DNA of 64,000 bases from Escherichia coli (GTDB lineage: Bacteria > Pseudomonadota > Gammaproteobacteria > Enterobacterales > Enterobacteriaceae): NCBI RefSeq assembly GCF_030013595.1, contig NZ_CP122771.1; one strand, 5' to 3'. Each line of letters begins with the position of its first letter. Position 1 is the stretch's first letter. Positions 16,057 to 64,000 of the stretch are shown here, one piece after another. The translations under genes and the position numbers were made by a program. The notes under the pieces are model-generated. The model searched no databases and was not told the origin of the DNA. It saw only the letters and a list, made by a program, of their open reading frames with translations.

Positions 16057-18875
16057 ATGAAGTTTATGTGATTGCCGGTGGTGAGTGGTTGCGGAATAAC
16101 CTGAATGCCATTGCCGCCTTTATGGGGACCCGGACGTGGGATTCCATTGAAAAAATTGCGCTCACATTGTCTGTTCTCGCGGTGGCCGTAATGTGGGTAC
16201 AGCGGCACAACGTGATGGATTTGCTGGGCTGGGTGGCCGTGTTTGTGCTTATCAGCCTACTGGTTAATGTCCGCACATCGGTGCAGATTATTGATAACAG
16301 TGACCTGGTCAAAGTTCACCGGGTGGATAATGTGCCGGTCGGACTGGCGATGCCACTTTCACTGACGACCCGTATCGGGCATGCAATGGTGGCCAGTTAC
16401 GAGATGATCTTCACGCAACCGGACAGTGTCACCTACAGCAAAACGGGGATGCTGTTTGGCGCAGAACTGGTATCAAAAAGCACCGACTTTTTGTCCCGTA
16501 ATCCGGAGATCGCCAATCTTTTCCAGGATTATGTGCAGAACTGCGTGATGGGGGATATTTACCTGAACCACAAATACACGCTGGAGGAACTGATGGCCTC
16601 CGCTGATCCTTACACGCTGATTTTTTCCCGCCCCAGTCCGCTGCGGGGCGTTTATGACAGCAATAATAATTTCGTGACCTGTAAGGACGCGTCGGTTTCG
16701 CTGAAAGACAAGCTGAATCTGGACACACAGAGTGGCGGAAAAACATGGCATTATTATGCCCAGCAGCTATTTGGTGGACGCCCTGATCCGAACCTGTTGT
16801 TCAGTACGCTGATTGGCGACAGTTACAGTTACTTCTATGGCTCAAGTAAATCAGCCAGCCAGATCATCCGCCAGAATGTCACCATCAATGCGCTGAAGGA
16901 GGGGATCACCAGTTATGCCGCACGTAATGGTGATTCGGCCAGCCTGGTGAATCTGGCCACCACATCATCGATGGAGAAGCAACGTCTGGCACATGTCTCC
17001 ATCGGTCATGTGGCGATGCGGACACTGCCCATGACGCAGACCATCCTGACGGGGATCGCCATCGGTATTTTCCCGCTCCTGGTACTGGCGGCTGTCTTCA
17101 ACAAACTGACGCTGTCCGTCCTGAAAGGCTATGTGTTTGCCCTGATGTGGTTGCAGTCATGGCCAATGTTGTACGCCATTCTGAACAGCGCCATGACATT
17201 TTATGCGAAGCAGAATGGTGCACCGGTGGTGCTCTCGGAAATTTCACAGATACAGCTGAAATACTCCGATCTGGCTTCCACTGCCGGGTATCTTTCCATG
17301 ATGATCCCGCCATTATCCTGGATGATGGTCAGGGGGCTCGGGGCAGGATTTTCCAGTGTGTACAGCCATTTCGCTTCCTCTGCTATCAGCCCGACCGCCA
17401 GTGCAGCAGGCAGTGTGGTTGACGGTAATTACTCCTACGGCAACATGCAGACGGAGAACGTGAACGGCTTCAGCTGGAGCACCAACAGCACCACGTCGTT
17501 TGGTCAGATGATGTACCAGACCGGCAGTGGCGCAACCGCCACACAGACCCGTGACGGTAATATGGTGATGGATGCAAGCGGAGCTATGTCCCGGTTACCG
17601 GTCGGCATCAATGCAACGCGTCAGATTGCGGCAGCACAACAGGAAATGGCCCGGGAAGCATCGAACAGAGCAGAAAGTGCCCTGCATGGTTTCAGCAGCA
17701 GTATTGCCAGTGCCTGGAACACGCTCAGTCAGTTTGGTTCTAACCGGGGGAGCAGTGACTCTGTCACCGGTGGTGCTGACAGTACGATGAGTGCACAGGA
17801 CTCCATGATGGCCAGCCGTATGCGCAGTGCAGTGGAAAGCTATGCGAAGGCGCATAATATCAGTAATGAGCAGGCGACTCAGGAACTGGCATCCAGAAGT
17901 ACGAGAGCTTCTGCCGGGATGTATGGAGATGCTCATGCTGAATGGGGGGTTAAACCTAAAATTCTTGGTGTTGGTGGCGGCTTAGGTGTTAAAGGTGGTG
18001 GTCGCGCTGGTATTGATTGGGAAGATAATGATGCGCATACGGCAAGTAGTAATACTCAGTCGAGCCATAATGCTCGTCATGATATCGATGCCAGAGCTAC
18101 ACAAGACTTTAAAGAGGCCAGCGATTACTTTACCAGTCGCAAGGTCAGTGAGTCCGGCAGCCATACTGACAATAATGCTGATTCCCGTGTGGATCAGTTG
18201 TCTGCAGCCCTGAATTCAGCGAAGCAGAGTTACGACCAGTTCACGACGAATATGACCCGCAGCCATGAATATGCTGAAATGGCATCCCGTACTGAAAGCA
18301 TGAGTGGGCAGATGAGTGAAGACTTGTCGCAACAGTTTGCACAGTATGTAATGAAACACGCGCCACAGGATGCAGAAGCTATTCTGACAAACACCAGTTC
18401 ACCGGAGATTGCAGAACGTCGTCGGGCGATGGCCTGGTCTTTTGTGCAGGAACAGGTACAGCCTGGTGTTGATAATGCCTGGCGGGAATCCCGTGGCGAT
18501 ATTGGTAAAGGAATGGAGAGCGTACCTTCGGGTGGTGGCAGTCAGGATATTATTGCTGACCATCAGGGACATCAGGCCATTATTGAGCAAAGAACGCAGG
18601 ACAGTAATATCCGTAATGATGTAAAACATCAGGTTGATAATATGGTCACAGAATATAAAGGGAATATAGGTGATACTCAGAACAGCATACGTGGCGAGGA
18701 AAATATTGTAAGAGGACAGTATTCTGAGCTGCAGAATCACCATAAAACAGAGGCATTATCTCAGGATAATAAATATAATGAAGAAAAGTCGGCTCAGGAA
18801 AGAATGCCCGGGGCTGACAGTCCACAGGAACTTATGAAAAGGGCAAAGGAATATCAGGATAAGTATAAGCAATAA
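16053..18875 (+). CDS. traG: TraG, mating-pair stabilisation and entry exclusion target (VirB6-like N-terminal domain)
   Basis: 940 aa, polytopic N-terminal half and hydrophilic C-terminal half; synteny. Confidence 0.9.
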   Translation: MNEVYVIAGGEWLRNNLNAIAAFMGTRTWDSIEKIALTLSVLAVAVMWVQRHNVMDLLGWVAVFVLISLLVNVRTSVQIIDNSDLVKVHRVDNVPVGLAMPLSLTTRIGHAMVASYEMIFTQPDSVTYSKTGMLFGAELVSKSTDFLSRNPEIANLFQDYVQNCVMGDIYLNHKYTLEELMASADPYTLIFSRPSPLRGVYDSNNNFVTCKDASVSLKDKLNLDTQSGGKTWHYYAQQLFGGRPDPNLLFSTLIGDSYSYFYGSSKSASQIIRQNVTINALKEGITSYAARNGDSASLVNLATTSSMEKQRLAHVSIGHVAMRTLPMTQTILTGIAIGIFPLLVLAAVFNKLTLSVLKGYVFALMWLQSWPMLYAILNSAMTFYAKQNGAPVVLSEISQIQLKYSDLASTAGYLSMMIPPLSWMMVRGLGAGFSSVYSHFASSAISPTASAAGSVVDGNYSYGNMQTENVNGFSWSTNSTTSFGQMMYQTGSGATATQTRDGNMVMDASGAMSRLPVGINATRQIAAAQQEMAREASNRAESALHGFSSSIASAWNTLSQFGSNRGSSDSVTGGADSTMSAQDSMMASRMRSAVESYAKAHNISNEQATQELASRSTRASAGMYGDAHAEWGVKPKILGVGGGLGVKGGGRAGIDWEDNDAHTASSNTQSSHNARHDIDARATQDFKEASDYFTSRKVSESGSHTDNNADSRVDQLSAALNSAKQSYDQFTTNMTRSHEYAEMASRTESMSGQMSEDLSQQFAQYVMKHAPQDAEAILTNTSSPEIAERRRAMAWSFVQEQVQPGVDNAWRESRGDIGKGMESVPSGGGSQDIIADHQGHQAIIEQRTQDSNIRNDVKHQVDNMVTEYKGNIGDTQNSIRGEENIVRGQYSELQNHHKTEALSQDNKYNEEKSAQERMPGADSPQELMKRAKEYQDKYKQ

Positions 18876-45364: not shown

Positions 45365-45592
45365 TACAGAGGCAGGCGGTGGAGGCCGCCTGTCAGCCCG
45401 CGCGAAAACCCCTGGCAGGCTGGCGCCTGCCGGAAGGGAAGCGGGCCACGCTGGCGCGTCGCCCGTTACCCTTCCCGTTTGTGATGTGTCCGGAATGTTT
45501 TTTTCTGATGGTATGACCCTGTTCCTGTTGTTGTTGTTGTTCTTTTCTCTGCTGCCCTGATTCTGACTACTGCAGTGTTGTCCTGTCTGCCT

Positions 45593-46165
45593 GCGCACCT
45601 TCGGCTCCCGGCTGCCTGGCGGCATCCGGTCGTCAGGCCCGACTCCGACAGGCAGCTGCTGGCGCACCCGCCAGTCTCCGCCGAACCCGCTGGCGCGGTT
45701 TCGGGCTGTCGCTACGGTCCGATGCGTGAAAACCCCGGGCTTGCAGCGACCGTTCCGGTCGCGCCACCCTTGTCGCGCCGTGGCCTGCGCTCCCGGCATC
45801 CCGGCAAAAGGCCGCCGGGATGTAAGGCGCAACGCCGTTTCGCGCACGCGCTCTCCGTCGTTGCGGCGGGTCCCTGCTCATTGCCTGCCGGGTGCCACAC
45901 ACCCGTATGAGTCCCTGTCGCCGGGGGCTGATACAGCCACAACCTGCCGCACTGACTGTCCAGGGTAAATGAACAGCCCACAAAATTTTTTACCCAAAAC
46001 CCGGTAAAAAATTTTGCGTTCTGCCCGGGACAGGTGCGTCAGGCCGTGGCAGTGATGCCCCTTGCGGCGAAGGTTCTCAAACGGGTGAAGTTCATACCAC
46101 AGGGAATACAGCAGCAGGTTCCCGCGAAACGTCAAAACCGCGGCTCCCGAAACTCAACGGGTGAT
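45593..46165 (+). repeat. Frpo-like leading-region repeat, copy 1 (hairpin 45979-46018)
   Basis: About 570 bp GC-rich unit also at 49012-49465 and 59340-59925; 14-bp perfect stem caaaattttttacc/ggtaaaaaattttg. Confidence 0.8.
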
Positions 46166-46395
46166 GTTCTTTAAAAATCAGGATTTATTTCAGGCTCCGG
46201 CAATATGCATTTATTTGTTCTGTCAGTCATCCGGCTGGCAGGTAATGAGAACGCAGGAACAGAAGGAGGAAAACACCGGAGAACGTCAGACGCAGATATG
46301 AAAAAAGCAGGTCAGGGACCTGCTTAATCCACACCGCAGAGACTGCACGAACAGTCTTTACGGTTTCATTAATTAACGTCATAAGAGGCTAAATT

Positions 46396-46626
46396 ATGAC
46401 AGTAAGTATTGTTTCACCTTCCGCAGCGGCTGTAAAGCCCCGCCGTCATCCCCGTTTCAGACGCGAAGACATCCCCGCGCCGGAAATTGACCCCGTGCTG
46501 AAAGCCTTCGGGCGACACATTGCCCGGAGTTTTCACCGGGGGCGTGGTGTACACATCCCCGCCATGAAAAACACGACCTTCGGGCAGGTGCTCCGCACAC
46601 TCGAACTGAAACGCGCTTTTAACTGA
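46396..46626 (+). CDS. Hypothetical small protein
   Basis: 76-aa ORF downstream of Frpo-like copy 1. Confidence 0.4.
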   Translation: MTVSIVSPSAAAVKPRRHPRFRREDIPAPEIDPVLKAFGRHIARSFHRGRGVHIPAMKNTTFGQVLRTLELKRAFN

Positions 46627-48866: not shown

Positions 48867-49011
48867 GTTCTTCTTTTTTCTGATGCTCTCATTACTGTCT
48901 GTTTTGTTGTTCTCCTGCTTATGCCTTTTCCGGGCGTCCCCCTGGCGGGGCGGGCTGTCGTGAACGGAGCCAGCGAAGCTGTCTCCGCCCTGGCGGGCTT
49001 CCATCCCTGAC

Positions 49012-49465
49012 GCCAAACCCCCTGGCTTGCAGCGACCGTTCCGGTCGCGCCGCCTCTGTCGCGCCGTGACCTGCGCTCCCGGCATCCCGGCAAAAGGCCG
49101 CCGGGATGTGAGGGGCAACGCCGTTTCGCGCACGCGCTCTTCGTCGTTGCGGCGGGTGCCTGCCCGTTGTTGTATCCGGTGCCCTGCACCCGTTTAAGCC
49201 CCTGTCGCCGGGGGCAAAGACAGCCACAACCGTCTCCGCCAGTCCAGGGGTGAAATGCACATCCCACAAAAGTTTTTGCCCAAAAGCCGGCAAAAACTTT
49301 TGTGGTCTGCCCCCGGACAGTCGTTTCCGGCCGTGGCAGTGATGCCCCTTGCGGCGAAGGTTCTCAAACGGGTGATGGTTAATACCGGAGGGAACAAACG
49401 GCAGGTCCCCGCAAAACGTCAAAACCGCGGCTCCCGAAACTCAACGGGTGATGGGGGCTGAAAAC
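49012..49465 (+). repeat. Frpo-like leading-region repeat, copy 2 (hairpin 49264-49305), immediately upstream of ssb
   Basis: Perfect 17-bp stem ccacaaaagtttttgcc/ggcaaaaacttttgtgg; unit ends at ssb RBS. Confidence 0.8.
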
Positions 49466-53566: not shown

Positions 53567-55138
53567 TTACTGAGAGGTCAGATCAACTTTCCAGGGCAAC
53601 AGATCGCGTACCCGGTTTGCCGGCCAATCCTGGATATGCTCAATGACGTAACGCAGCCATTTTTCTGGTTCCACATTGTTCAGACGGCATGTGCCGATCA
53701 GCGAGTACAACACCGCCGCATGTTCGCCACCGCTGTCGGAACCCGCGAAGAGCCAGTTTTTCCGGCCTACGGCCACTCCCCGTAAGGCGTTCTCTGCGAT
53801 GTTGTTGTCGATTTCCACCCAGCCATTACTGCAGTACACGTTCAGGGCCTCCCACTGTTTCAGCAGGTATGCGAACGCTTTTGCCGTATCCGAGTGACGC
53901 GACAGTGTTTTCATCTGTTCCTGTATCCAGTCATACAGTGACTGCATCAGTGGAGCCGCTCTGGCTTTTCTTGCTGCCAGACGCTGTTCTGCTGAACATC
54001 CCCGGACTTCTGCCTCGATGACATACAGTTCACCGATACGCTGCAGGGCTTCCGTGGTGATGTCGGTTGGCACTCTTGCATGCACATCGTGGATTTTTCT
54101 CCGGGCATGGGCCATACACGCGGCTTCCGTTATTCTGCCGGATTCGTATAACGCCCGGTAACCACCGTAAGCATCTGCCTGAAGCACACCGCTGTAACCG
54201 GCCAGGTGATTCTGTGGATGGATACCTTTCCGGTCCGGGCTGTACGCGAACCAGACCGCCGGGGGCATCTGTGAACCGGCGTTACGGTCATCACGGACAT
54301 AGACCCACAGCCGGGCAGTTCTTGTTTTACCACTGCCCGGCTCCTGGACCGGAACGGGGATATCATCCGCATGGACTTTACCGGGCATCAGCACATACTG
54401 GCGCAGCACGTCATACAGCGGCTCCAGCAGTTCAGCAACGGCACCGGTCCAGCGCCCCAGCGTGGCGCGGCTCAGTTCCACGCCCTGACGAAGGTATATT
54501 TCTGACTGGCGGTATAACGGCAGATGGTCTGCATACTTCCCGGTGACGATATGAGCCAGAAGCCCCGCTCCGGCATAACTGCGTGCAATGGGTTTTGAAG
54601 GTACTGGTGCCTGCACGATATGGTCGCACCGGCAACAGGCCAGTTTCGGACGTTGTGTTTCGATAACCTTAAAAGCGCTGCTGATAAGCTCCAGTTGCTC
54701 TGACACATCACACCCCAGAGGACTGAGGTCACCACCACAGGCCGGGCAGCATTCCTCTTCCGGCCGGATGACCCGGGTTTCACGGGGAAGTGAGGCCGGT
54801 AACGGCTTACGGGCTGAAGACTGGCGCAGGGCGGATGGCAGTACCGGGTCATATTGCTCATCCAGCGTTTCCGCCATTTCTTCCTGAAGTGCGCTGATTC
54901 GCTCCTGGGCTTCCTGTATCTGCCGTTCGGTTTTAGCGCGAAGTTTTTCTGAGCTTTTACCGAACTGCATGCGCTGCAGTTTCGCAACCAGCGCCTTCAG
55001 CCGGTTGATTTCGGAAGCATAAGCCGCCACCCGCTGTGAGAGCAGGCGGTTGTATTTCGCCATCTGGCGGATGGTGTCCTGTTGCGTCTGCAACAGTGCC
55101 CGCAGGCGGGCATTCTCATGAGCAAGTGAGGTGTCCAT
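53567..55138 (-). CDS. IS66-family transposase (OrfC)
   Basis: 523 aa with N-terminal coiled coil, CxxC...CxxC zinc motif and DDE-type core. Confidence 0.9.
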
Positions 55139-55157
55139 ATCCTCACTTTACAACGGG

Positions 55158-55505
55158 TTATATGCGGATGCCAGCGCGTTCCGTTCGTTTCGGGTGCTTC
55201 CAGTCGATGCCTTCGAGAAGCATGGACAACTGAGCCGGAGTAAGGTGAACCTTTCCATCGCGGGTGACCGGCCAGACGAAGCGGCCCCGCTCCAGGCGTT
55301 TGGTGAAGAGGCACAGTCCGTCACTGTCAGCCCACAGCACTTTTATCTGGTCACCCCGGCGTCCGCGGAAGATGAACAGATGCCCGGAGAACGGGTCATC
55401 CTTCAGGACGTTCTGAACTTTTGAGGCCAGGCCGTTAAAGCCATTTCGCATATCGGTGATACCGGCAACCAGCCAGATACGCGAACCGGCAGGGAGAGAT
55501 ATCAT
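55158..55505 (-). CDS. IS66 OrfB (TnpB-like accessory protein)
   Basis: 115-aa ORF with the conserved IS66 OrfB-like N-terminus. Confidence 0.85.
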   Translation of the reverse strand: MISLPAGSRIWLVAGITDMRNGFNGLASKVQNVLKDDPFSGHLFIFRGRRGDQIKVLWADSDGLCLFTKRLERGRFVWPVTRDGKVHLTPAQLSMLLEGIDWKHPKRTERAGIRI

Positions 55506-56155
55506 CAGTGGCTGCTCCCTTTCATTTCGCGGATAAGTGTCTGTAATAACGCCGGTGTCAGTTCACCTTTCAGCCTGAGAGTTCCGGCCGGCAGAACCAG
55601 CTCGCAGCACAGACTGTCTGGCAGTGTATTTATCTGTTCAGGTATCTGCACTGGTGCCGGGATTTTATTATCCGGCTCCGGAGTTAACGTCACGGGAAGT
55701 AGCGATGTTTCATGTTCGCCGGGCGGTTGCAGGCCACCGTTACGCCAGAGATGCCGCCAGTTAAAGAGCAGGTTATCGTTAATTCCATTCTCTCGAGCTA
55801 TTTGTGCGACACAAGCACCGGGTAAAAGAGTTTGCTGAACCAGTCTCCATTTAAACTCCGGTGAAAATCGGTTCCGGCGGGGTTTCTCTGCTTTCACAGG
55901 CTGAGTCACGGTCGGGGCTGAAGGGTATCGCCCCGGGAAAAGAGCCCGGGCCAGTTGCCCGCAGGAATATTCACCGGAAAGAGGCCAGTCAGTGAATACC
56001 TGGTGAAATCGCCTCACCAGAGAAAAAATGGCGGTTTTGCTGACACCGGTCTGCGCAGAAATGCGCGGGTACGACAGTGACTCGTCAAATCTCAGCTGTA
56101 GCACACGCAGGATCAATTCCGGATTGTCTGCCAGTACCGCTTTTCGTGCATTCAT
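55505..56155 (-). CDS. IS66 OrfA-like HTH protein
   Basis: 216-aa ORF start-overlapping orfB; longer than typical OrfA. Confidence 0.7.
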   Translation of the reverse strand: MNARKAVLADNPELILRVLQLRFDESLSYPRISAQTGVSKTAIFSLVRRFHQVFTDWPLSGEYSCGQLARALFPGRYPSAPTVTQPVKAEKPRRNRFSPEFKWRLVQQTLLPGACVAQIARENGINDNLLFNWRHLWRNGGLQPPGEHETSLLPVTLTPEPDNKIPAPVQIPEQINTLPDSLCCELVLPAGTLRLKGELTPALLQTLIREMKGSSH

Positions 56156-56683: not shown

Positions 56684-56994
56684 CAACCTGGAGGCGGGCG
56701 CAGGCCCGCCTTTTCAGGACTGATGCTGGTCTGACTACTGAAGCGCCTTTATAAAGGGGCTGCTGGTTCGCCGGTAGCCCCTTTCTCCTTGCTGATGTTG
56801 TACGGGCATGAACAACCTGACTTCAGGAAGGTCGTTTCCCTTCAGGAACGGGGATGAACGCGCGCCTGCGGCGCCCGTTCTTTTCCCCCGCCTTCTCTGG
56901 TTATGGCCTGTCAGAAATCACATCACCTTCCCTGTGATTATTCTCTTTTTCTTCCTGCTCTGATTCTGACTACTGCAGTGTTGTCCTGTCTGCC

Positions 56995-59339
56995 GGGTCG
57001 GGTAGCAGCGGCACATTGCTGCGCCGCCGCCCCCTAAGAACGGAGCGTGCGAGTTTTCCCGCACTCCGCTCAAGCCTTTATAAGTGCTTTCGGTGAGCAC
57101 CGGCTTCCCTGCTGTGTAACTGTCGGTGGCAGTTCGGATGTAACAACTCGAGATTGGTCAGTTCGTCACTGCCGCCCATAACTTTCCTGATCCGGTGATG
57201 TATATTCCATCCGGTCTGGTTGGTTATGAGTTGTCCGCACTGCGGACAGTGTTTCCCCTGCCTCTTCCAGAGTTGAACTACTGTCTTCATCTTCTTTGAT
57301 TTGCCTTTCCAGATTAGATCCAGACGACGTTCAAAGTAGATTTCCATTCCGGGGGTGTATGGTGTTGCTTCGCCTTTGATTTTTATATGGCGCTTTATCG
57401 GTGTTTCCATTGCCCGGAAGAGTGTCAGAATTTTCCCTTCCGGGGTTATGGCTTTAAAGATCCAGCGCCTGCCTTCAAAGGAGAAGTATCGTCCGGCGAT
57501 CCACCGCAATCCTTTCCGGGGATGCCGTCTTACACACCATCGCCATATAGCTCGCCAGATTTGGGTGTCGACATAATTAAATGTTTCTTTCGCCACGACG
57601 TGTCGGTGATAGGTAGCCCATCCCCGGATCACCGGGTTTAGCTGGCCTATCAGTTTCCATGCCGGGAGCGTCGGATTGCGTTTAATTATTTCTCTGACTT
57701 TACAGAGGAAGTTCTTCAGGTTTTTCTTCGACGGTTTAATCAGCATTTTACCGTTGTACTTCCTGACGTTCTGCCCTAAAAAGTCGAAGCCTTTATCTAT
57801 ATGTGTGATCGCTGTTTTTTCTTCCGACAGTTCCAGCCCTCGTTCGCGCATGAAAGCTGCAATCAGTGGTCTGACCTCATTTTCCAGCAATTCACGGGAG
57901 CTGCCTGAACAGATGAAATCATCAGCATATCTCACATAATTCACCTGGTGCTTTGCACTGTGATAACCACTTTTCCTGAACGTTTGCATCAGTTCCTTCT
58001 CCAGTCCGTCCAGAGCCATGTTGGCGAGAACAGGGGATATGATGCCTCCCTGCGGTGTCCCGCTGTTCGTATGGTTAAACACGCCTCTTTCCATGTAACC
58101 TGCTTTCAACCATTTTTTAAGCAGTCTCCTGTCCATCGGAATATGGGAAAGCAGCCAGTCATGGCTGATGTTATCGAAACACCCTTTAATATCGCCCTCC
58201 AGTATCCATTTGGGCGATACTTTCTGGCTCATCCGCAGAAAAATGGACTCAATGGCGTCATGCGTGCTGCGCATTGGTCTGAAACCATAGCTGTTATGGT
58301 CAGCAGTGGTCTCGGATACGGGTTCCAGAGCCAGCAGCCACAGTGCCTGCATGGCCCGGTCCCTCATTGTGGGTATGCCCAGCGGTCGCGTTTTGCCGTT
58401 TGATTTTGGGATATGTATTCGCCGTAGTGGCTGTGGCCTGTAACCACACAGATTCAGGCTGCATATTCCTTCCCATTTCTCCTTCGGTGTGTGCCATATT
58501 TTTCCGTCAATACCGGGTGTCCTTTTACCGGTATTTTCAGTTACACGCCTGACAGCCACGGCTTTGCCGGAGAATGAGCGGGTGAGGATGCGCTGTAGTT
58601 CTCTGACCTGCCGCCATTGTTGCTGTCGGGTTGCCTTTGCAATCCGTAACTGTAGCTTTCGCACCCGGGCATGGCATGCTTTCCAGTTTATGGTGTGCCA
58701 GCCTGTCGGGTGGGGTATCGTGGACACACTGATGTGTGTATTCATCTCGCTGATATCCTTTTGACTGCTTTACAGCTTTTCATGCAATTAAAGACCAGAC
58801 GGAAGTCTGCCCGCTTTCGCGTCGGGGAACCTGCCCCGTATCCCGGTTATTACGGCCGGGCATTCGCTTTTTCCGTCCTCCTATGCCCGCACCGCTAACA
58901 GTGTTCCTTGCGGTTCACCTGCCTGTGAGGCAGCGATACGGGTTTACCAGGTTCCGCTTAACATACAGAGGGTCAGGGCGGGTTCTGTCTCTTCACCGGG
59001 GGTCTCTGCGCCCATGTGCTCCCTGTGCGCGAGGTAGCAACCGGACCCCGTACCTTTTGGTTCAGGCCTGTCAGCATCTTTGGCCTGTTGCCGATAACGG
59101 TGTTTATCAACAGTTCACATGTGTTAACCCTTCTGACCAGCCTTGCTCTCCTGCCGCATGATGCTTGCAGCAAGGTAAAGCCCCTCACGGGGCTTTACCC
59201 GGGCTGACGCCCGGCTCTCGTTGTCCCGGGAGCTTCAGACCCCGCCGTTGCCGGCAACGCCTGTCCCGGTAGGCTACAGCTAATGGGATAGCTGGTTTTA
59301 TCAATGTAAAACAATACGTTAAGCGACTTCCTGTCGCAC
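56995..59339 (-). mobile_element. Group II intron, boundaries +/-10 bp
   Basis: 5' end GTGCGACAGG on minus strand; domain V-like hairpin GAGCGGAGTGCGGGAAAACTCGCACGCTCCGTTC near 3' end (+ coords about 57030-57063); encodes RT/maturase/HNH ORF. Confidence 0.8.
57078..58745 (-). CDS. Group II intron-encoded reverse transcriptase/maturase with HNH endonuclease
   Basis: 555 aa; RT motifs incl. YADD (VRYADDFIC); C-terminal CPQCG...H..H HNH. Confidence 0.9.
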   Translation of the reverse strand: MNTHISVSTIPHPTGWHTINWKACHARVRKLQLRIAKATRQQQWRQVRELQRILTRSFSGKAVAVRRVTENTGKRTPGIDGKIWHTPKEKWEGICSLNLCGYRPQPLRRIHIPKSNGKTRPLGIPTMRDRAMQALWLLALEPVSETTADHNSYGFRPMRSTHDAIESIFLRMSQKVSPKWILEGDIKGCFDNISHDWLLSHIPMDRRLLKKWLKAGYMERGVFNHTNSGTPQGGIISPVLANMALDGLEKELMQTFRKSGYHSAKHQVNYVRYADDFICSGSSRELLENEVRPLIAAFMRERGLELSEEKTAITHIDKGFDFLGQNVRKYNGKMLIKPSKKNLKNFLCKVREIIKRNPTLPAWKLIGQLNPVIRGWATYHRHVVAKETFNYVDTQIWRAIWRWCVRRHPRKGLRWIAGRYFSFEGRRWIFKAITPEGKILTLFRAMETPIKRHIKIKGEATPYTPGMEIYFERRLDLIWKGKSKKMKTVVQLWKRQGKHCPQCGQLITNQTGWNIHHRIRKVMGGSDELTNLELLHPNCHRQLHSREAGAHRKHL

Positions 59340-59925
59340 GCGCACCTTCGGCTCCCGGCTGCCTGGCGGCATCCGGTCGTCAGGCCCGACTCCGACAGGC
59401 AGCTGCTGGCGCACCTGCCAGTCTCCGCCGAACCCGCTGGCGCGGTTTCGGGCTGTCGCTACGGTCCGATGCGTGAAAACCCCGGGCTTGCAGCGACCGT
59501 TCCGGTCGCGCCGCCTCTGTCGCGCCGTGGCCTGCGCTCCCGGCATCCCGGCAAAAGGCCGCCGGGATGTAAGGCGCAACGCCGTTTCGCAAACCGCGCT
59601 TCACGTCGTTGCGGCGGGTCCCTGCCCGTTGTTGTGTCCGGTGCCATTCACCTGTTTAAGCCCCTGTCGCCGGGGGCATAGACAGCCACAACCGTCTCCG
59701 CCAGTCCAGGGGTGAAATGCACATCCCGCAAAACTTTTTGCCCAGAAGCAGGCAAAAACTTTTGCGGTCTGCCCCCGGACAGTCGTTTCCGGCCGTGGCA
59801 GTGATGCCCCATGCGGCGAAGGTTCTCAAACAGGTGATGGTGAATACCGGAGGGAACAAAAGGCAGGTCCCCGCAAAACGTCAAAACCGCGGCTCCCGAA
59901 ACTCAACAGATGATGGGGGCTGAAA
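59340..59925 (+). repeat. Frpo-like leading-region repeat, copy 3 (hairpin 59726-59767)
   Basis: Stem ccgcaaaactttttgcc/ggcaaaaacttttgcgg; unit ends at RBS of 59948 ORF. Confidence 0.8.
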
Positions 59926-61989: not shown

Positions 61990-62390
61990 TCTGGTGACTT
62001 TATCCGTAAATAATTTAACCCACTCCACAAAAAGGCTCAACAGGTTGGTGGTTCTCACCACCAAAAGCACCACACACTACGCAAAAACAAGTTTTTGCTG
62101 ATTTGCCTTTTAAATCATGTAATTAACAAATGCTATTTATATTTAATAATTCTGAATTATTAAATAGAGAGTCGTTGGCGATCCTGTTACGACCCTATAG
62201 CGACCCTTATTAGGATCAGTACTGACAATTTTCATGAAAAACATTGATATATATTAGGGGCGCCACTAGCGCCGGATCGCATTTTTTTATAGGATGATCC
62301 TAGAGGCGCTGCTAGGAGTGTCTTTCTTACTTGTAAACACTATATGCATATTTATAGTGAAAAGTTCATTGCTTAATTATGAAAGGTTTT
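61990..62390. promoter_or_regulatory. oriT (origin of transfer) with nic region about 62060-62080 on the minus strand
   Basis: Reverse complement of 62030-62082 reads GTAGTGTGTGGTGCTTTTGGTGGTGAGAACCACCAACCTGTTGAGCCTTTTTGTGGAGTGGG, near-identical to the F/R100 nic region as remembered. Confidence 0.8.
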
Positions 62391-63643: not shown

Positions 63644-63779
63644 TTGATGTTTTGTTTTTGTTAAAAACAAGGTGACATTATGTCACCTTGTTTTGTTAAT
63701 GTAATTTACTCTATTTTTGTTTCTATTTTTATGGATTCGTATAATTATATTTAATTATCTAAGTGGCTGAGGAGGAGAC

Positions 63780-64000
63780 TTGAGCAGAAATATAATAAGG
63801 CCTGCTCCGGGCAATAAAGTTTTACTGGTATTGGACGATGCTACTAATCACAAGCTCTTAGGTGCCCGGGAGCGCAGCGGGAGAACAAAAACTAATGAGG
63901 TGCTAGTCAGGTTACGTGATCATCTGAGCCGTTTTCCTGACTTTTATAATCTGGATGCAATAAAGGAGGGAACAGGGGAAACTGATTCGATAATTAAAGA
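63780..64000 (+). CDS. traY: TraY (5' part; truncated by window end)
   Basis: TTG start after GAGGAGGAG RBS; ribbon-helix-helix-like N-terminus; runs off window. Confidence 0.7.
   Translation, partial: MSRNIIRPAPGNKVLLVLDDATNHKLLGARERSGRTKTNEVLVRLRDHLSRFPDFYNLDAIKEGTGETDSIIK

Follow-up and report, generated by a model that had tools for sequence, protein, structure and literature searches.

A group II intron related to EcI5 at a conserved site beside a Frpo promoter repeat in the leading region of an Escherichia coli IncF plasmid

Introduction

Several described systems lie close to the element considered here, a complete group II intron within a 64,000-nucleotide (nt) stretch of Escherichia coli DNA (contig NZ_CP122771.1 of assembly GCF_030013595.1; the whole stretch is hereafter called the window), which belongs to an IncF plasmid with FinP/traJ at 62.9 kb. 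For the intron EcI5, the pairings between exon-binding sites (EBS) of the intron and intron-binding sites (IBS) of its target have been established experimentally (PMC8643678). On FII-33 plasmids, a 2,343-bp intron has been described that serves as a lineage marker, and conjugation is reported both for plasmids that have it and for plasmids that lack it (PMC8765060, PMC6052338). These papers give its site only as a 77-amino-acid (aa) hypothetical open reading frame (ORF) downstream of ycjA, and they mention neither intron class, nor EBS/IBS pairing, nor an association with Frpo (PMC8765060, PMC6052338). Additionally, new junctions beside the ssi3 operon of an IncI plasmid arose in two independent populations of an evolution experiment; they were made by a putative group II intron from a resident IncF plasmid, which may or may not be the intron analysed here (PMC10104558). 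Literature searched for Frpo or the leading region together with an intron gave no description of class, EBS/IBS pairing or Frpo association.

The intron of the window is already published, as the 2,343-bp intron of pHN7A8/FII-33, and is annotated on about a thousand enterobacterial plasmids. It is thus a known element, and its target preference is undescribed but unsurprising. In our analysis, the best-supported reading, and one that we consider highly probable, is that its position results from retrohoming of the EcI5 type into a conserved, multicopy and near-neutral site on conjugative plasmids.

Boundaries and ribozyme domains

The ends of the intron were set by exact empty sites in other plasmids. 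The flanking sequences (59340-59540 and 56797-56996) were joined in silico and compared with uninterrupted plasmid sites, many of which proved 100% identical to the joined sequence over 401 nt. Therefore, the intron is exactly 2,343 nt long (56997-59339 on the minus strand), and its insertion is precise, with no target duplication. A preliminary description, made from the sequence of the window alone, had given the element as 56995-59339. Its 5' start is retained, whereas the empty sites show that its 3' end was placed 2 nt too far and belongs at 56997. On the minus strand, the intron begins at 59339 with GTGCGACAGG and ends at 56997 with ...CUACCCGAC, and both ends agree with the group II consensus (5' GUGYG and 3' AY), as GUGCG is present at 59339-59335 and GAC at 56999-56997.

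All six ribozyme domains are accounted for, and as judged from its sequence the intron is complete and intact. Domain I is matched by the Rfam model RF02012 at 59146-59295(-), above the gathering score (121.7 bits, E=3.8e-25), and domains V-VI by RF00029 at 56997-57073(-), with 55.2 bits against a gathering score of 40 (E=4e-8). Domains I-III were modelled by RNAalifold on 12 relatives, using the region upstream of the ORF. The consensus comprises 155 pairs in these domains, 102 of them with compensatory changes on both sides, and has a covariation term of -30 kcal/mol. The hairpin that the preliminary description had likened to domain V was located at 57071-57038, where RF00029 agrees with it. 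In domain VI, GGGGGCGGCGGC and GCCGCUGCU(A)CCC form the helix; the bulged A is position 57003, which is seven nt away from the intron end and falls inside the RF00029 match.

Intron-encoded protein and class

The only long ORF in the intron (57078-58745(-), 555 aa) contains the YADD motif. Its product had been described as having reverse transcriptase (RT) motifs and a C-terminal HNH domain, and Pfam indeed returns RVT_N (2.5e-32), RVT_1 (1.6e-41), GIIM (2.7e-24) and HNH (2.2e-9). Among solved structures, the best match is the T.el4h maturase-RT 6ME0 (E=1e-177, residues 12-553), compared with 6e-46 for LtrA and 7e-41 for the GsI-IIC RT. Over its full length, the protein shares 56% identity with that of EcI5 from pO157, and the ribozyme has 67-79% nucleotide identity to EcI5 in domains I and V-VI. 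These comparisons assign the intron to the class that combines a IIB1 ribozyme with a chloroplast-like-1 (CL1) protein having RT, maturase and HNH endonuclease functions, and they point to a distinct relative of EcI5.

Other assignments were considered and rejected. Identity with EcI5 itself is contradicted by the levels of protein (56%) and nucleotide (67-79%) identity and by the different EBS1, EBS2 and target. A group IIC intron, targeting terminator or attC stem-loops, is contradicted by an EBS2 that is present and covarying and by the presence of HNH. Because half of the carrier plasmids come from Klebsiella, Kl.pn.I5/Se.ma.I1 was tested as well (reference copy CP006658); there was no nucleotide match, and the proteins are 31% identical. 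Among the curated Zimmerly-type names looked up (E.c.I7/8/10 and Kl.pn.I1-4), none fits.

Target recognition

The EBS sites were assigned by alignment with EcI5. EBS1 (GCGCAC) forms Watson-Crick pairs with IBS1 (GUGCGC, -6 to -1) at six of six positions, EBS2 pairs with IBS2 (GCCGA, -13 to -9) at five of five, and U244 of EBS2a pairs with the A at -14. Such an EBS2a-IBS2a pair at -14, directly upstream of EBS2, is reportedly found in IIB1/CL1 introns (Monachello et al. 2021). The EBS loops are hypervariable among the relatives, and yet each fits its own 5' exon. For instance, the EBS1-IBS1 pairing covaries in all 12 relatives examined, and EBS2-IBS2 forms five Watson-Crick pairs in nine of 11, with a different sequence in each (on average 4.6 pairs with its own partner versus 1.3 with the partners of others). 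Similarly, the EBS2a-IBS2a pair is kept in 10 of 11, C-G and G-C variants included. A strict search for a GTGCGAC start gave clean boundaries in about 14 of 80 relatives; one false start (L051) was dropped. On the 3' side, C occupies position +1, the candidate IBS3 that would pair with EBS3, in 15 of 16 full-length insertions examined, which comprise the intron and its close Mixta/Pantoea relatives, the exception being a Mixta copy (L015) with A. The natural homing site is the ~15-nt sequence A-GCCGAA-G-GUGCGC/C (the slash marks the insertion junction), and a longer form of the site is GGGAGCCGAAGGTGCGC/CCGG.

With these pairings, with domains I-III and V-VI and with the precise insertion all found, the central claim of the preliminary description, a group II intron with an RT/maturase/HNH ORF, is borne out. 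The structural annotation that it had put forward as a check, covering domains I-VI and EBS/IBS pairing, yielded domains I-III with covariation, domains V-VI by Rfam and the EBS/IBS pairings given above.

Insertions at other sites conform to this site in different degrees. Ectopic chromosomal insertions in rfbK and gntU keep A-14, GCCG, G-7 and most of IBS1. At an IncI-type site (..GCCGAAGUGGGCG/CAAUAAAAG; L092, L004), the intron is precisely inserted, with an unchanged IBS2 at the usual distance from the junction. EBS1 pairs there at 6/7 positions only with its register shifted by one nucleotide, compared with 1/6 in register.

The Frpo setting of the insertion

The oriT nic-region motif, recognised by the R100/F nic consensus, marks the minus strand as the transferred strand (T-strand). 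On this reading of the sequence, the sense strand of the intron is the T-strand, and the leading-region genes on the plus strand use the T-strand as template. All leading-region genes around the intron are oriented opposite to it, just as the preliminary description had it. The DNA 5' of the intron on the minus strand is a repeat with three copies in the window, and the intron lies in copy 3, flanked by hok/sok on one side and by the yfhA-like/DUF932 operon on the other. Frpo is a promoter whose -35 and -10 boxes are rebuilt by a long imperfect hairpin in single-stranded DNA. When copy 3 is folded as single-stranded DNA, one main hairpin of ~319 nt is strongly predicted, and a second structured segment follows it. 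The main hairpin of this copy (59584-59902) is 97.5% identical to positions 63669-63986 of the F plasmid, namely Frpo1, upstream of ygeA/DUF932, and 85% identical to F Frpo2, upstream of ssb; the names Frpo1 and Frpo2 of the F copies are from PMC9849209. The earlier term 'Frpo-like' for the repeat is thus well founded.

A distance of 245 nt separates the insertion point from the main hairpin; the second structured segment ends at this point, which is on the side away from the Frpo-driven genes. Beyond the intron, the homology between copy 3 and copy 1 resumes for 51 nt (56944-56994 versus 45541-45591), and the insertion site is therefore internal to the repeat unit. It had previously been placed exactly at the 5' boundary of copy 3, and this has to be corrected, since the site lies inside the unit, in a variable distal segment that F lacks. 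The F plasmid and copy 2 of the window carry a distal module different from that of copy 3. It had also been suggested that the insertion may disturb the structured element. This is not upheld: the predicted fold of the main hairpin is identical whether or not the intron is present (319/319 positions), and FII-33 plasmids with and without the intron conjugate (PMC8765060). The predicted fold of the second segment (59340-59583) is partly altered by the intron, 178 of 244 positions remaining the same.

An empty site at 45557-45611 had been proposed for comparison. It is a paralogous site, in repeat copy 1, with the junction at ~45593/45592; its IBS1 and IBS2 are identical, but it has A instead of CC at +1/+2. 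The A at +1 may make a poor IBS3 and so protect copy 1 from occupation. The natural homing site is part of a variable module that adjoins the Frpo/ssi promoter for single-stranded DNA in the leading regions of IncF and IncI plasmids. The features of the locus are collected in Table 1.

Table 1. Positions in the window of the intron, its domains and recognition sites, and the elements around it
Feature	Coordinates	Strand	Details and basis
Complete group II intron	56997-59339	-	5' GUGCGAC to CCCGAC 3'; exact empty sites, Rfam, length equal to that of the published pHN7A8 intron
Domain I	58948-59333	-	Intron nt 7-392; RNAalifold consensus and RF02012
Domain II	58886-58942	-	Intron nt 398-454; RNAalifold consensus
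Domain III	58791-58882	-	Intron nt 458-549; RNAalifold consensus
Domain IV ORF (intron-encoded protein)	57078-58745	-	555 aa; Pfam, 6ME0 and EcI5 comparison
Domain V	57038-57071	-	34 nt, AGC catalytic triad, starts GAGC; RF00029 and sequence reading
Domain VI	56997-57037	-	Bulged branch-point A at 57003; RF00029 and sequence reading
EBS2a and EBS2	59090-59096	-	EBS2a U244 at 59096; EBS2 (A)UCGGC, nt 245-250; aligned to EcI5 EBS2
EBS1	59025-59030	-	GCGCAC, nt 310-315, hairpin loop; 6/6 pairs with IBS1
5' exon recognition sequence	59340-59353	-	IBS2a A at -14; IBS2 GCCGAA -13 to -8; IBS1 GUGCGC -6 to -1
IBS3	56996	-	Candidate; first 3'-exon nucleotide, C
Main Frpo hairpin, copy 3	59584-59902	-	T-strand; ~319 nt, predicted; whole DNA fold z=-8.7
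Second structured segment of repeat	59340-59583	-	Distal ~137 nt (59340-59476) is the variable module carrying the homing site
Empty paralogous site, repeat copy 1	45592-45606	-	Full IBS2a/IBS2/IBS1; A instead of CC at +1/+2
oriT nic-region motif	62050-62081	-	Sequence motif; marks the minus strand as the transferred strand

The variable module (59340-59476 versus 48879-49015, and F) occurs in at least two unrelated versions of ~110-140 nt, each the home of a different intron; it is bordered on one side by the conserved part of the repeat and on the other by a downstream conserved stretch of ~50-95 nt. In T-strand sense, Frpo copy 1 is directly preceded by an Rfam match to the antisense RNA AS-pc01 (46302-46401(-), 98.9 bits), and the position of this minus-strand RNA family beside the repeat is relevant to the way in which an antisense intron might be expressed. 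An IS66-family element (53567-56155(-); ORFs of 216, 115 and 523 aa) is inserted between psiA and hok/sok and shares the strand of the intron.

Distribution

Full-length copies of the intron at 99% identity or higher were found on 982 plasmids of PLSDB. The exact 5' junction seen in the window is carried by 1,010 plasmids, and in ~95% of carrier plasmids the intron is at this junction. About half of the carrier plasmids are from Klebsiella. Among 5,426 complete E. coli genomes, 343 (6%) carry the intron, in 562 plasmid and 49 chromosomal places. The 5' exon is present on thousands of plasmids, compared with about 1,000 records of the junction, and thus the site is occupied in only a minority of the plasmids that have it.

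Different repeats and different plasmid backbones are involved. FII-33/pHN7A8-type plasmids have the intron in repeat copy 1, whereas in the window it is in copy 3. In pCUVET17-1136.1, all three Frpo repeats are occupied by identical copies that are not in tandem and that each have a different 3' flank. The IncI-gamma/K1 plasmid NZ_CP122766.1 carries an identical intron at the equivalent site upstream of ssb (L092, 3501-5843); the IncI-type 3' junction occurs in 132 records, and the exact empty IncI-type site is common. The intron is found on both MOBF/MPF_F and MOBP/MPF_I backbones.

The three copies on CP133144.1 (L002, 4112-17834) were rejected as homing events, as they belong to three tandem copies of a 5.69-kb unit that consists of the intron, a hypothetical gene, DUF3560 and a methyltransferase. 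This amplification looks like recombination between repeats or intron copies, not homing. The intron with IncF-type flanks was also seen on two short contigs, contig139 of Streptomyces morookaense and a contig of an Erysipelotrichaceae metagenome-assembled genome. The protein is 99-100% identical in these copies, and the 5' region and 3' end of the ribozyme are ~98-99% identical; contamination or misbinning in those assemblies is the most likely source. Additionally, pCUVET17-1136.1 (NZ_CP115325.1) has a second, unrelated group II intron at ~16200-18837(+), in sense orientation, which ends 3 nt before the start of ssb, encodes a 633-aa LtrA-like protein (E=5e-119 to 5G2X) and has Rfam domains V-VI at 18717-18837. 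As this intron is inside the Frpo-driven ssb leader, expression of ssb there would depend on splicing.

Relatives at equivalent sites

A genome-wide search gave 547 relatives. In Mixta and Pantoea, relatives with 82-83% aa identity have a homologous 5' exon downstream of a Frpo-like sequence, and their EBS1 is changed to match. NCBIfam gave no leading-region gene names for the Mixta/Pantoea flanks; these flanks contain one weak protein match to the region of the window just after ssb, and Frpo-like motifs in the upstream DNA. The sequences support a context comparable to that in the window.

A different CL1 intron, with 60% aa identity, is present in the alternative distal module on pESA134_1 of E. 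albertii (L011, 1793-4142), and its EBS1 and EBS2 match the target ..CAGGGAUGGAAGC/CCGCC perfectly. Sites of the E. albertii type are empty in copy 2 of the window (48994-49010(-), junction 48997/48996) and in both Frpo copies of F (L094, 13545-13557 and 8157-8169).

Discussion

If the intron moves as EcI5 and T.el4h do, then the spliced lariat with its bound protein would reverse-splice into the DNA strand that carries the IBS, which is T-strand-sense, the HNH domain would nick the opposite strand, and the RT would copy the intron. The intron is apparently still mobile; the indirect evidence for splicing and retrohoming consists of the identical copies at several sites and on several backbones and of the new junctions of the evolution experiment (PMC10104558). 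With as many as three copies of the target on one plasmid, and with thousands of conjugative plasmids that have it, the intron could spread between co-resident plasmids and also ride on conjugation. The insertion is probably close to neutral for the plasmid, because it is outside the main hairpin, away from the Frpo-driven genes and antisense to its neighbours.

Three points weigh against retrohoming into a near-neutral site. A simple EBS1 model does not predict the shifted register at the IncI-type site. Near-neutrality leans on predicted folds and on the published conjugation of a related plasmid group. Finally, a sigma-70 consensus scan of the minus strand upstream of and inside the intron found no promoter.

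The preliminary description had suggested that the intron may exploit transient single-stranded DNA during transfer for retrohoming, which fits the strand geometry. In its full form, this different explanation is that the ribonucleoprotein, in the donor or the recipient, reverse-splices into the transferred strand and that complementary-strand synthesis, not HNH cleavage, primes the cDNA. The lineage would then be specialised on the T-strand side of Frpo because the DNA there is transiently single-stranded and structured. We regard this as unlikely, but there is evidence on both sides. The T-strand carries the IBS and hence is the strand that receives the intron RNA, and complementary-strand synthesis on it would arrive from the 3' side of the intron. 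Introns that lack an endonuclease (En) use such a geometry on lagging-strand templates, as in the retrotransposition of RmInt1 and Ll.LtrB. Additionally, four target types (IncF, IncI, Mixta/Pantoea and that of the E. albertii intron) all have the intron T-strand-sense beside Frpo, and the new junctions of the evolution experiment arose in populations in which conjugation was occurring (PMC10104558). However, the HNH endonuclease is kept intact, and very efficient homing into double-stranded plasmids is known for EcI5 (PMC8643678). Site-specific homing by itself fixes the orientation, and the many copies therefore amount to few independent events. Moreover, EcI5 in pO157 and the LtrA-like intron before ssb in pCUVET17-1136.1 are oppositely oriented, and there is no strand bias in the two ectopic chromosomal copies examined, one being sense and one antisense to its gene. 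Their host genes, rfbK and gntU, are co-directional with replication in K-12. The wider proposal is also doubtful, namely that of a CL1 lineage specialised on Frpo/ssi modules, in which this intron, its Mixta/Pantoea relatives and the E. albertii intron occupy alternative distal segments, always in T-strand sense, through reverse splicing into the incoming single strand with cDNA primed by complementary-strand synthesis. In this proposal, the intron might be expressed from the -35/-10 boxes of Frpo, which, if they are on the T-strand as the hairpin geometry suggests, would face the intron in double-stranded DNA.

It is very improbable that the intron is an immobile relic, with its abundance due to clonal spread of plasmids and its multiple copies to recombination between Frpo repeats. 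In favour of this, the FII-33 lineage, intron included, has spread clonally (PMC8765060), and the tandem amplification of the 5.69-kb unit on CP133144.1 multiplies the intron without homing. However, the ORF and all ribozyme domains are intact, and the intron is precisely inserted where both flanks differ (IncF-type versus IncI-type, and rfbK and gntU), which recombination cannot yield. The three identical copies of pCUVET17-1136.1, in non-tandem repeats with different 3' flanks, and the occurrence on both MOBF/MPF_F and MOBP/MPF_I backbones likewise argue against a relic. Lastly, under a co-opted function the insertion would persist through an effect on leading-region expression (for example as an insulator of Frpo copy 3 against hok/sok read-through, through an altered second segment or as a source of antisense RNA). 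This could draw on the partly changed fold of that segment (178/244 positions the same), but it has very little probability given that only a minority of plasmids with the site are occupied (~1,000 versus thousands), that from plasmid to plasmid the intron may be next to any one of the three repeats, that no difference in conjugation ability is reported (PMC8765060) and that F Frpo1 works without this distal segment.

Retrohoming of the EcI5 type thus remains the favoured explanation, and three points go beyond the records searched. The natural target is a module attached to a leading-region promoter for single-stranded DNA, on thousands of resistance and virulence plasmids; IncF, IncI and Mixta/Pantoea elements are hit at equivalent sites, with guide sequences changed to match; and the receiving strand is the transferred strand. 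For the question of whether conjugative single-stranded DNA is used by a group II intron, the locus offers a natural test case in E. coli, and for gene targeting it provides an EcI5-like intron of different specificity. Intron junctions already serve as lineage markers in plasmid epidemiology.

Comparison with known systems

The intron of pHN7A8/FII-33 (F33:A-:B-) is the same element, being of the same length and 99.1% identical (L009/L010 type), and it has the same recognition sequence and is likewise antisense in the leading region. It differs in location: there the intron is at copy 1, with the DUF1380/hypothetical genes on one side and the DUF3560 operon on the other, whereas the intron described here is at copy 3. 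EcI5 resembles the intron in its protein architecture (RT-X-En), its 34-nt domain V and the aligned positions of EBS1, EBS2 and EBS2a; both introns have the U(EBS2a)-A(-14) pair, C at +1 and the 3' end CUACCCGAY. In contrast, EcI5 has other EBS sequences and another target, and in pO157 it is co-oriented with the leading-region genes and lies close to sopB rather than beside Frpo. The T.el4h/Th.e.I3 ribonucleoprotein (PDB 6ME0, 6MEC) is of the same CL1/IIB1 type, and its mechanism of DNA target recognition should transfer, although its host is cyanobacterial and its target unrelated.

The remaining likenesses concern lifestyle or spread. IIC-attC and other IIC introns are similar in lifestyle only, as they too home beside conserved, structured and strand-specific DNA of mobile elements. 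They have no EBS2 or En and recognise a DNA stem-loop, whereas the intron here has EBS2/EBS2a, an AGC domain V, HNH and a base-paired target. Ll.LtrB, in the relaxase gene of pRS01, is also a mobile intron on a conjugative element, with its spread coupled to conjugation. However, Ll.LtrB is of the IIA/ML type and is in sense orientation in an essential transfer gene, so that its splicing is required for conjugation, whereas the intron described here is intergenic and antisense, and its splicing is not needed by the host plasmid.

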